Shown piece after piece: positions 32,001 to 35,000 of a DNA stretch of 64,000 nucleotides (its first letter is position 1; every line of letters starts with the position of its first letter). This stretch comes from Escherichia coli. Lineage in GTDB: Bacteria > Pseudomonadota > Gammaproteobacteria > Enterobacterales > Enterobacteriaceae. Where the stretch lies: NCBI RefSeq assembly GCF_003334765.1, contig NZ_QOWT01000001.1; one strand, 5' to 3'. The position numbers are program-made.

Positions 32001-35000
32001 GTTTGTCTGCGGCGTCTGGGAATGCGCAAATGGAATAACCATTCAGTGGGTTATCGCCGTGGCGAAGCGCCAGAAAAGCCGCCGGGCCGTGGCAAAGGGA
32101 GATAACAAAACGGTCATTTTTGATTGCCCACTGTAAAGCGGCAGCTACGTCCTGGCTTTCAGGTAAACCAATAAGTGCGCCATGACCACCAGGAACAAAG
32201 ATTGCTGCATATTCGCTATCAGCGTTGAGGCTGGCGACAACATCCGCGAGTTTCTTCGGATTGCGGAACAACGATTTATGCTGCTCAAAGAATGGCATTA
32301 CTTTTTCATCTTTGTGCGGCATAGCCCAGTATTCAAACTTGGTCATCAGACCGGAAATGGTCGCCACTTCGAATTCGAAACCTGCAGCATGGAGATGATA
32401 CAACGGCAGCAACGTTTCAATCGGATGGTTACCGGTCGAGAACAGTTTTCCGTTATCGGTCGGCAAATAACGTTCGTCCGCGGCGATCACCAGAATTTTA
32501 TGTTTACCGCGATAAGGTTTTGGATAGTCCACGCCATCAAGATCAGAGACAGGACTGGTATATTGGCTAAGCGAATATTCTGAAGGAAAGAATGCATTAT
32601 CTTCAGCAATATCGACCTGCGGATTTTTACTTGTTTGAACAGTCATAGTGTATTCCTTATTATTGCTTAGTTAGGGTAGTCACTATATTTGCGACTGAGC
32701 TGGTCGCTATTTTTAACCAGGCTGGAAAATTGAGTCAATATATCGAAAGCGGTAGTCGGCGGGTGTAAGTATGTAATGATGATGCTGCACTGGTGTTGAA
32801 TATTATTCACGCCAAATTTTCCTTATTGAGCAACGTCGTCGCAAGTGGCCTCAATGATTTTAGACCATTATCAGAGGTACGGGGCGGCGGGGAGAGATTT
32901 AGTGATGTGGAATATTGTGGTGCTGATGAATATTTATATCCCGGATTGGTGGAGAAAAAGCTTTTTCCATGCACTTTTTTTGCAAAAATTTCTATATGGG
33001 AGGCGTGTTTGTTGCGGATTAATTCATAAAGAAATGTATTTGGAGTGTTGGCTGGAAGAGTAGCTGGTAGAAGATATTGTGCCAGGAGGGGCAGGGTAAG
33101 GTGGTGTATCGATATGCTTTGGCAATTGCGTGTGCCGCAGATGGAGATGAAATGCCAATAAAAAAGCCTGAGTTCGATGAGGGACGAACTCAGGCTAGTG
33201 TTAAGTTTTACAGTAACACGCCGCGGCGCGTCGGCTGATTAGAACTGGTAGACGATACCAACTGCAAACTGGTCATCAGCTGCTGCGCCAGTAATGGCGG
33301 CGTCATCTTTATCCAGCATGTTGAATTTGTATGCAGTATAAACGTTCATGTTCTTATTAAAGTAGTACCAGGTACCAACTTCAATGTAGTTCACACGGTC
33401 AGCGTCAACATATCTATGTCCAGGTACCCCTTTGATATCTTTACCTTTAGAGTACACATAACCTAAGGACGGACGCAGACCAAAGTCGAATTGATACTGA
33501 ACAACCGCTTCAAAGTTCTGGGTTTCATTGATAAGTTGATCACGCATTATTGTATTGCCTTCTCGATCGGCAACACCTGTATCAATAGAACCCGGAGTCA
33601 TATTACGAGTTTCGCCGTACATTACAGCTGCGTAGACATTGTTCGCGTCATACTTTGCAGCCAACGACCACAGTTCAGCATTTGAACCGTTTCCATCGGC
33701 AACTTGATCGTTGGTGCGATCAGATTTGCTATATGCACCAACGATACCAAAACCATTGATGTTATAGTCTACAGACAACGCATAGCCGTCACCATTTTGT
33801 TTCTTAGTGCTACGGTTGCTGTTTTTGCCTTGGTACTGAATCGCAAAATCAAGACCATCAACCAGGCCAAAGAAATCATAGTTACGGTAGGTTGCAACAC
33901 CGTTGGTACGACCATTCATGAAGTTGTCAGCGGAAGCCCAGGAATCGCCACCCCATTCAACTAACATATCGGTATAAGCTGCGGCATCATAAGCAACACC
34001 GTAGTTACGGCCATAGTCAAATGATCCTAACTCGTTATATTTCAAACCGGCGAAGGTTAAACGGGTTTTTTCCTGGTTTTCACCTTCGGGCTTGCTGGCG
34101 TCGAGGTTGTATTCAAACTGACCAAAACCAGTCAGTTCGCTGGTGATTTGGGTTTCACCTTTAACACCGAAACGAGCATAGGAGGTATCTTCGTTTTCGC
34201 TGTTATTATCATCAGTATTTGACCAGATGCGTTCGCCAACCATCTTGCCGTAGAAATCAACTTTATTGCCATCTTTATTATAAATTTCAGCCGCATTTGC
34301 TGCGCCAGCAACTAATAACGCCGGGACCAGCATTGCCAGAACTTTTCTTTTCATTATGTATTCCCTTGTGATTATAATCTTCATGAATATATCAATAAGT
34401 GCCGTTATCCAAAAAAAAGCACATTTGGATACTATTCTATGAAGTTCATTTTATTTTAAGGATTACATGTAACAAATGTATTTAAAAGATTTCAAAATGT
34501 TTCTAATCTATTTAATATAATTCAGAATTATGAATTCTAAATATAAATATTCATGAAAATTATAAATGTATATCAATATGTTATGAGTTGGGTGGAAACA
34601 TAGGGGGTGTCAATGATTGTTGCGCTAAACGGCTGGTGTGATCACGCGCACATTAATGAAGGCATAAAAAAAAGCCGGCATCATGCCGGCCCAAAAAATA
34701 TAAACAAGACGATAAAAGGCTAATAACGGAGGCATCATGACACAGAATAATAAAAAGGTATAATTGTAATCAGTGCTAATATATTGATTGAATGAATTAA
34801 TAAAGCCGATCTCAAAGATAAATAAAATCGCTCAAAACGATTTTTCCTGTATTCACTGCCGTTGCGCAAAAATTATCTATTTGTTCAAAAAATGAGTGAG
34901 TCTTGACTGGCTCATCCAATGTGGAAAAATGTGACTTTTATCACATAATAGTACTAAGTCTGAATTTTCCGGGTTATCTCAAAATGGAATACGGTTCGAC

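Follow-up and report, generated by a model that had tools for sequence, protein, structure and literature searches.

Gene Content of the Locus

The window, i.e., the whole 64,000-nucleotide stretch of Escherichia coli DNA analyzed here (contig NZ_QOWT01000001.1), contains a porin gene on the minus strand at 33239..34354. The gene sits between rseX/drpB and hchA, the exact site of the yedS pseudogene of E. coli K-12, with drpB/yedR and rseX upstream, hchA and hprS downstream, and flanks that are 95-98% identical to those of K-12. Translation of the gene gives 371 codons and a stop without internal lesions; the first 21 aa form the signal peptide, which leaves 350 aa for the mature protein. The coding sequence is 100% identical at the nucleotide level to a RefSeq CDS named "porin" whose product is WP_000824355.1. 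G+C content is 40-48% in the porin gene, below the ~52% of its neighbors. The gene lies within core DNA that is collinear with K-12, and on this ground we rejected an origin from a phage or an island. A nearby island (window positions 1-23865) stops at asnT, 9 kb from the porin gene, and is unrelated to it.

The start codon is placed at 34354 (MKRKVL), where every homologue and the RefSeq entry for the identical gene also begin. The mechanical open reading frame extends upstream by another 10 codons, as far as an ATG at 34384; this ATG was rejected as the true start in view of the MKRK start of all homologues and of the Shine-Dalgarno sequence that precedes 34354 (AAGGGA, 34362..34367, minus strand, 7 nt before the ATG). 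Codons 1-21 (34292..34354, minus strand) read as a cleavable Sec signal peptide with predicted cleavage before AEIYNK, and the N-terminus, which the other yedS alleles share exactly, closely resembles that of OmpC. The protein ends in ...VGIVYQF, whose terminal aromatic residue is a putative beta-signal for BAM. The terminator scan identified an intrinsic terminator of the porin gene at 33165..33196 (minus strand), which begins 43 nt past the stop and consists of a 12-bp stem with seven G-C pairs, an 8-nt loop and a T-run (TTTTTTATT). Thus, the uninterrupted frame, signal peptide, Shine-Dalgarno sequence and dedicated terminator that the original prediction attributed to this gene are all present.

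The small RNA gene rseX (34667..34756, minus strand; Rfam RF01401, 99 bits vs. a gathering score of 50) lies directly upstream of the porin gene in the same orientation and has its own terminator at 34692-34672 in the terminator scan; it belongs to the context of the porin gene and is not part of it.

Porin Family and Predicted Structure

Residues 27-371 cover positions 1-337 of the 337-position Pfam Porin_1 model (PF00267) with an E-value of 2.4e-118, and this full-length match bears out the earlier assignment to the general porins of the OmpC/OmpF/PhoE family. The AF2 model has 16 strands with a mean pLDDT of 82, a pTM of 0.78 and lower confidence in the loops, and it predicts a barrel with a lumenal L3, to which the helix-containing segment 119-148 between strands 5 and 6 would correspond. 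The top Foldseek match is OmpK35 (5o77; TM 0.84/0.92, 63% identity), followed by OmpF (TM ~0.81/0.89), while the sequence matches in the PDB are OmpK35 9hn1 (E-value 9e-145), OmpF (~1e-118) and OmpC (~1e-92). In an alignment of 46 sequences, the eyelet residues K37, R61, R98, D129 and R149 do not vary, and E133 is conserved in at least 90%; the six map to K16, R42, R82, D113, R132 and E117 of OmpF, respectively. In the constriction zone, a basic cluster would face acidic residues of L3. The L3 motif is VEWGGD, which OmpK35 shares, and the position matching Lys125 of PhoE is Gly, which it also is in OmpF.

None of the named subfamilies claims the protein: it scores 417.4 bits vs. a cut-off of 484 for the OmpC subfamily (NCBIfam NF007841), 449.9 vs. 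583 for the OmpF equivalog (NF007446) and 414.4 vs. 599 for the PhoE equivalog (NF007544). PGAP names the gene identical to that of the window only "porin", whereas it names the K-12-type yedS alleles "porin OmpC". The description of the gene as OmpC-like thus holds at the level of the family, the signal peptide and the first mature residues; it fails for the mature protein, which is closest to OmpK35/OmpF and falls below the OmpC cut-off.

Allele Families and Their Origin

At least three deep allele families occupy the yedS site of E. coli. The allele in the window belongs to an OmpK35/OmpF-like family; the copies in K-12 and O157:H7, which have decayed, come from another family that is OmpN/OmpC-like. 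The families are told apart by a cassette at 33239..34264 (minus strand) that encodes the mature protein after its first ~9 residues and shows 62-84% DNA identity between families. Outside the cassette, the first 90 nt of the coding sequence are 97-100% identical in the ten strains compared in the segment table, the first 90 nt past the stop are 94-100% identical in all allele families, and identity between strains amounts to 92-100% when the flanks are taken together with the first 90 nt of the coding sequence. The conserved 5' end comprises the signal-peptide codons and the next ~9 codons; it is common to all yedS alleles and nearly so with ompC. The OmpK35-like cassettes correspond to 371 or 357 aa, the OmpN/OmpC-like ones to 393-404 aa and a further type to 352 aa, and the synonymous divergence between the types is about that between E. 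coli and Citrobacter.

On the cassette reading proposed below, each of the types would be under purifying selection, and each would be carried by between about a fifth and a third of genomes. For the window allele, dN/dS is 0.06-0.19 against five other alleles/orthologues at dS values from 0.57 to >1.5, and we therefore conclude that the protein has been under long-term selection. In comparisons with the three closest relatives, dN/dS is 0.04-0.07 in the strands vs. 0.08-0.20 in the non-strand regions.

An intact gene at the yedS site is normal in natural E. coli and is already annotated. At least 15 RefSeq genomes carry an 8-kb locus that is 100% identical to that of the window, with the gene annotated "porin". 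The window allele occurs in about 1,000 of the 5,426 complete E. coli genomes and, at ≥80% coverage and with the 357-aa subtype included, in 1,624 of them; intact genes of other allele families at the site are also common, and all eight of the other non-K-12, non-O157 loci inspected, which represent several families, are annotated as intact. With these counts and a RefSeq protein of identical sequence, intactness is no peculiarity of the source strain. Positional orthologues of the gene adjoin drpB in E. fergusonii and yedJ-dcm-vsr in Citrobacter.

Based on these results, we tentatively propose that the yedS site may be a porin "cassette" locus, in which a conserved promoter, 5' UTR, signal peptide and terminator surround at least three alternative mature-protein cassettes, maintained either as a long-lived balanced/trans-species polymorphism or through repeated replacement between genera; this proposal is one possibility that we put somewhat below even chances. 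Pressure on a surface protein from phages, colicins or the immune system would presumably be the driving force. A search of the accessible literature found no paper describing this allele structure of yedS.

A rival account of the origin, which we consider less likely than not, is that the window-type cassette is not an old E. coli polymorphism and was imported relatively recently from another enterobacterial genus by homologous recombination, for which the flanking DNA and the 5' end conserved among porins would have served. The abrupt changes in identity at codon ~30 and again at the stop, and the low G+C content of the gene relative to its neighbors, are consistent with such an import, as is the finding that the closest non-E. 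coli porins are at the syntenic site (85% identity in E. fergusonii and 77% in Citrobacter/Enterobacter). However, no near-identical donor was found, the best non-E. coli match being 82-85% identical in protein with a dS of ~1.7, and the allele is not only widespread (about 1,000-1,600 genomes) but also diversified, with a dS of 0.57 for its 357-aa subtype. The functional reading of the gene is unaffected by the choice between import and old polymorphism. E. fergusonii has two tandem porins at the site, of which the second is NmpC/OmpD-like, has a different signal peptide and is 51-62% identical to the E. coli yedS alleles; the idea that the allele families arose when different lineages lost different members of an ancestral tandem pair finds no support in this second gene.

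Upstream Region and Expression

The region upstream of the porin gene is AT-rich, with 22% G+C at 34400..34599. A candidate sigma-70 promoter-like site at 34448..34475 (minus strand) consists of TTGTTA, a 16-nt spacer and TAAAAT and matches the consensus at 9 of 12 positions; the consensus scan found no excess of promoter-like sites in the upstream region (10 vs. 7.2 expected). Two adjacent 20-mers that resemble OmpR boxes at the consensus level, AGAAACATTTTGAAATCTTT and AAATACATTTGTTACATGTA, are located at 34464..34504 (minus strand), and the second overlaps the candidate -35 element. In this interval, ACATTTTGAAA (34500-34490) is identical to the core of the C1 OmpR site of ompC, TTTACATTTTGAAACATCTA, a site that we confirmed upstream of K-12 ompC; the 11-mer core occurs once in the window vs. 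0.09 expected matches. The stretch separating the rseX terminator from the porin promoter region contains a CRP-site-like palindrome, TAATGTGCGCGTGATCACACC (34635..34655, minus strand), which differs by one spacer base from a K-12 site at 2033766; that K-12 site is recorded as footprinted by CRP in vitro and is attributed to yedS.

MicF control of yedS was reportedly described by Warner in 2013. RNAduplex predictions for the 5' 40 nt of MicF against yedS from -80 to +30 and from -90 to +60 gave -11 to -13 kcal/mol with z-scores of +0.5 to +0.7 relative to shuffled sequences, whereas the MicF-ompF control gave -27.4 kcal/mol and a z-score of -4.4. Direct pairing of MicF with yedS is thus unsupported, being no better than for shuffled sequences. 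The yedS 5' UTR is identical in K-12. MicC against the yedS 5' region was likewise at chance level (z -0.03 vs. -4.3 for the MicC-ompC control), and RseX gave a z-score of -0.86, while the RseX-ompC control itself reached only -0.33.

Taken together, we regard the product of this gene, with considerable confidence, as a functional general-diffusion porin of the trimeric type and the Porin_1 family, a 16-stranded beta-barrel with an L3 constriction loop. It represents one of the allele families, at least three in number, that diverged long ago at the yedS/ompS1 site. Its precursor would be exported by Sec and cleaved after ANA, and the mature protein is expected to be inserted by BAM through the C-terminal ...YQF signal. 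Once inserted, it would form a water-filled and presumably conducting channel, with the conserved basic cluster and acidic L3 residues lining the eyelet in the canonical manner. Because the promoter lies in DNA of 22% G+C with OmpR-box-like sequences, H-NS silencing and dependence on OmpR are likely. By analogy with the Salmonella ompS1 locus and with the H-NS repression of rseX, this AT-rich upstream DNA appears to be of the kind that H-NS silences. Expression is probably low and conditional, with H-NS silencing to be overcome by OmpR or other activators as at Salmonella ompS1, and most likely the porin is made only under some conditions. When expressed, for instance in strains without OmpF and OmpC, it would open a further way into the cell for small hydrophilic solutes, among them beta-lactams and carbapenems.

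It is improbable that the gene is instead cryptic, i.e., an intact reading frame that H-NS permanently silences in the source strain, with no role in permeability and with its intactness reflecting recent ancestry. The AT-rich upstream DNA, the known repression of the neighboring rseX by H-NS/StpA, the reported quiescence under laboratory conditions of Salmonella ompS1 at the same site and the lack of an sRNA or strong promoter signal in our scan and duplex predictions would fit permanent silencing. But the low dN/dS over synonymous divergences of 0.57 to >1.5 bespeaks long-term selection, and the intact annotation of the other eight inspected loci extends over several families. Evidence of expression comes from other strains: the K-12 yedS(ompS1) transcript is detectable and decreases 2.5-fold on sigma-E induction, proteomic analysis of an STEC strain identified a porin "50% homologous to K-12 YedS", and YedS is reported to be active in a clinical isolate, with relevance to carbapenem entry, according to papers that cite Warner et al. 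(2013, Antimicrob Agents Chemother 57:1935, PMC3623324). Expression of the window porin in its source strain is plausible.

Relationship to K-12 yedS

The K-12 yedS gene (b4496; NC_000913.3 2034051-2035243) is annotated as a pseudogene with the fragments b1964-b1966. Relative to the nearest intact allele, that of NCTC9699, it carries an amber change (CAG>TAG) in codon 162 and has lost 1 nt at nt 663, a -1 frameshift, and the description of yedS as a fragmented pseudogene in K-12 is thus correct. The implied equation of the window gene with an intact form of K-12 yedS, however, does not hold. Sliding identity to K-12 drops from 95-100% to 50-78% at ~34265 and returns to >90% just past the stop at 33239, a pattern repeated in the segment table of the ten strains. 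Across the mature region, the two genes share ~64% DNA identity and 59.5% amino-acid identity, so that the mature proteins are not orthologous in sequence. Synonymous sites are saturated in the comparison with NCTC9699, whose K-12-type allele is intact (dS 1.65), and the window protein is 371 aa long vs. 397 aa in K-12 (393-404 aa among the K-12-type alleles). In a neighbor-joining tree, the window protein groups with OmpK35 and the K-12 type with OmpN/OmpC, in separate clades.

The notion that the window gene is simply K-12 yedS without its lesions, the two being recent alleles of one gene, accords with their shared chromosomal position and conserved ends, but it is extremely improbable and already refuted by the identity profile, the tree, the segment table and dS, in line with the differences in length and PGAP name.

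Implications

Neither the intact gene nor its function is new: many genomes already carry an annotation for the same sequence, and work on how YedS functions in clinical isolates has been published. Rather, "yedS" in E. coli denotes several deeply different porins at one site and not one gene sequence. PGAP names one family "OmpC" and gives the remaining ones just "porin". Expectations based on K-12, such as pseudogene status, sequence-based probes and antisera, are therefore not transferable to other strains. The source strain has a third or fourth general porin gene available. As its product might partially substitute for OmpF and OmpC, it could influence beta-lactam/carbapenem entry, phage/colicin sensitivity and antigenicity, and resistome pipelines that score porin loss should take the yedS allele into account.

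Comparison with Known Porins

Work from the Oropeza/Calva laboratory is said to have established Salmonella OmpS1 as a quiescent porin that is silenced by H-NS and depends on LeuO/OmpR. The label OmpS1/ompS1 is also carried by E. coli yedS in some annotations and sources. An AT-rich upstream region and OmpR-box-like sequences are also found at the window gene. With a length of roughly 390 aa, Salmonella OmpS1 would resemble the K-12-type alleles and not the window allele. E. coli YedS (b4496) shares with the window porin the protein family and the arrangement drpB-rseX-porin-hchA as well as an upstream region, 5' UTR, signal peptide and terminator that are 94-100% identical.

E. coli OmpC is of the same family and fold, and its signal peptide and first mature residues are nearly identical to those of the window porin, with nt 1-110 being 94.5% identical to ompC of other strains. 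Over the whole protein, however, identity to OmpC is 57.5%, and OmpC has PEFGGD in L3 in place of VEWGGD. The ompC and ompF genes give pairing signals with MicC and MicF, respectively, while yedS of the window gives neither. E. coli OmpF (2omf/1opf) resembles the window porin in its 16-strand barrel and in the conserved equivalents of K16, R42, R82, R132, D113 and E117, but ompF adjoins aspC, a different locus. The closest likeness is to OmpK35 of Klebsiella pneumoniae (5o77, 9hn1), the best match in both sequence and fold, which shares the 16-strand barrel and the VEWGGD motif of L3. Identity of the window porin is 63-65% to OmpK35 and ~55-60% to OmpF, and it differs from both in a long allele-specific insertion at residues ~253-276 that lengthens the external loop of the beta11-beta12 hairpin.

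Structure and genomic context of the porin gene

The porin gene at the yedS locus (34354..33239, minus strand) is translated without interruption through 371 codons, from MKRKVL at the start to VGIVYQF at the C-terminus. The mechanical open reading frame ending at 33239 has its first ATG further upstream, at 34384; the start at 34354 is the one used by every homologue and by the RefSeq annotation of the identical gene. The N-terminus is a typical Sec signal peptide, a Shine-Dalgarno sequence (AAGGGA) is found 7 nt 5' of the ATG, and a terminator on the same strand, composed of a 12-bp G+C-rich hairpin and a T-run (33196-33165), begins 43 nt past the stop codon. 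The original prediction of an uninterrupted frame with its own signal peptide, ribosome-binding site and terminator is thus borne out, and the precursor is intact, with export and assembly signals present.

The gene is flanked by hprS and hchA on one side and by rseX, drpB/yedR, yedJ and dcm on the other, which is the gene order around yedS in K-12, and positions 23866-55854 are collinear with K-12. As had also been claimed, K-12 yedS is fragmented: it is annotated as a pseudogene and, compared with the intact allele of strain NCTC9699 (the nearest one, 94.5% identical to it in DNA), carries a CAG>TAG change at codon 162 and lacks one base at nt 663. In a sliding comparison with K-12, identity is 95-100% from drpB and rseX across the entire upstream region and 5' UTR to about nt 90 of the coding sequence, falls sharply to 50-78% from about 34265 until the stop codon, and is back above 90% in the terminator and further on. 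The same pattern is found among ten strains, in which the flanks are 87-100% identical (all segments except one at ≥92%), the first 90 nt of the coding sequence 97-100% and its remainder 62-84%. Judged by its sequence, the porin is not K-12 yedS freed of its lesions.

About 520 nt without a long open reading frame (32647-33164) separate hchA from the porin terminator and are 92-97% conserved across strains; the RefSeq annotation of NCTC9699 has an 86-aa hypothetical protein here, encoded on the opposite strand. The dcm gene (36088-37506, 472 aa) is intact, while dcm and msrP of strain ST2350 are annotated as frameshifted pseudogenes, and drpB is annotated as a pseudogene with an internal stop in F8704-2 and with a frameshift in O157:H7 F8797; some of these lesions may be assembly errors.

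Allele families at the yedS site

Among the loci inspected from the complete-genome collection, at least three porin families occupy the single yedS site. Family A comprises the 371-aa protein described here (100%) and a 357-aa subtype 90% identical to it, with OmpK35 as the nearest clade; family B (352 aa, 68% identical to the window protein) forms a separate deep branch of the OmpK35-side clade; and family C, the K-12/O157 type (393-404 aa, 60% identical to the window protein), is nearest to the OmpN/OmpC clade. Consistently, a neighbor-joining tree places the window protein with OmpK35 and porins of E. fergusonii, Citrobacter, Enterobacter and Klebsiella oxytoca, and K-12-type YedS with OmpN and OmpC. 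Synonymous divergence is 0.57 from the 357-aa subtype and saturated (above 1.5) from families B and C, E. fergusonii and Citrobacter. In all comparisons dN/dS is 0.06-0.19; for the three closest relatives, predicted strands have lower values than the remainder of the protein. The gene is under long-term purifying selection, and the families are old lineages, each held functional by selection. Differences between the window allele and the 357-aa subtype lie chiefly in non-strand segments, including an insertion of ~14 residues in the region ~253-276 that is predicted to lengthen the external-side beta11-beta12 hairpin. In E. fergusonii PTSU01000012.1 (6001-10688), two tandem porin genes, followed by a TrkH-family gene, are found between drpB and hchA: one of yedS type (361 aa), whose product shares 85% identity with the window protein, and one resembling NmpC/OmpD (369 aa), whose signal peptide differs.

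Intactness is the usual state of the locus, with K-12 and O157:H7, whose gene is frameshifted, as exceptions, because full-length genes are frequent, all other non-K-12, non-O157 loci opened (8/8) are annotated as intact, and intact K-12-type proteins are plentiful among protein database entries, where some bear the name "yedS" or "outer membrane protein S1" and one occurs on at least 1,000 contigs. At ≥80% coverage, the window gene is matched in 1,624 of 5,426 complete genomes; in about 1,000 of these, UTI89 and ST131 strains among them, identity is ≥98.8%; K-12-type alleles are matched in 1,662, and a family-B query in 1,865, including weaker full-length matches to the 357-aa subtype. One IS1-disrupted and two truncated copies occur in the match tables of the window gene. 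At least 15 RefSeq genomes, of human, chicken, dog, panda and lake-water origin, share the 8-kb segment around the porin at 100% identity. The window gene is a common porin allele of E. coli that has been annotated before.

Of modest interest is that the polymorphism of the mature-protein region is ancient and cassette-like, which makes K-12 "yedS" a poor reference for most strains. No description of deep yedS allele families was found among the openly searchable papers that mention yedS, which is weak evidence that none has been published.

Other segments without K-12 counterparts

Positions 1-23865 have no K-12 counterpart and abut asnT (tRNA-Asn, 23870-23942, minus strand). They encode a P4-type integrase (22443-23486, minus strand), the salicylate synthase YbtS (20945-22249; TIGR03494, 682 bits), two ABC permease/ATPases (16053-17855 and 17815-19644), an AraC-type regulator (14927-15886, minus strand) and a 2,041-aa open reading frame (8629-14754, minus strand). 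The stretch represents the yersiniabactin high-pathogenicity island, integrated at asnT, and the strain is therefore ExPEC-like. Positions 55854-58883, where K-12 has yedN/yedL/intG, likewise lack a K-12 match and encode an EmrE-family SMR efflux protein (55871-56383; the frame exceeds the family model by 60 codons), a YbhB/YbcL kinase-inhibitor-like protein (56552-57103) and an AraC-family regulator (57113-57910).

Upstream region

The 200 nt centered on 34500 contain 22% G+C, typical of H-NS-bound DNA, and the porin may be under H-NS control; the adjoining rseX is repressed by H-NS/StpA. The rseX gene (34667-34756, minus strand; Rfam, 99 bits) is full length and directly upstream on the same strand. 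Two OmpR-box-like 20-mers overlap and precede a candidate promoter-like site (34475-34448, minus strand), and one includes an 11-mer that is identical to the core of the ompC C1 site and occurs once in the window vs. 0.09 expected. A CRP-type palindrome (34655-34635, minus strand) matches, in all but one spacer base, the K-12 site at which an in-vitro CRP footprint was assigned to yedS. The K-12 yedS(ompS1) transcript is detectable and drops 2.5-fold on sigma-E induction. Simple duplex prediction gave no support for direct pairing of MicF or MicC with the yedS 5' region (MicF-ompF and MicC-ompC controls clearly positive) and no above-chance pairing of RseX with it, a result that carries little weight since the RseX-ompC control was negative as well. 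The whole regulatory picture is one that we infer. The intergenic region of yedS and yedR has served as a marker of host source. A full-length dsrA small RNA gene is also present (43093-43179, plus strand).

Predicted function and comparison with known porins

Pfam Porin_1 is covered end to end (E = 2.4e-118). An AlphaFold2 model (46-sequence alignment, pLDDT 82) predicts 16 strands and an L3 segment bearing a helix, and its best Foldseek match is OmpK35 (5o77; TM 0.84/0.92). Equivalents of the OmpF eyelet residues K16, R42, R82, R132, D113 and E117 are conserved, and the protein is predicted to adopt a porin fold with a canonical eyelet. It would be exported via Sec, inserted by BAM and form trimeric non-specific channels, through which small hydrophilic solutes, beta-lactams included, may pass.

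In the work of Warner et al. 2013, YedS of a clinical E. coli isolate is reported to be functional and to influence susceptibility to carbapenems; beyond published work, the window porin adds little that is new on permeability or resistance. Proteomics of a STEC strain detected a porin "50% homologous to K-12 YedS", which would fit a non-K-12 allele family being expressed. The observation in the original prediction is confirmed and its interpretation partly supported.

Among solved relatives, K. pneumoniae OmpK35 ranks first (E = 9e-145), followed by OmpF (about 1e-118) and OmpC (about 1e-92). The NCBIfam order is OmpF, OmpC, PhoE, and PGAP names the protein only "porin" because it falls under the curated cut-offs of all three. 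The label "OmpC-like" holds for the family and the N-terminus, nt 1-110 being about 94.5% identical to ompC, but not for the mature protein, to which OmpK35 and OmpF are closer. The L3 motif VEWGGD is shared with OmpK35, and the PhoE-specific lysine position is occupied by glycine.
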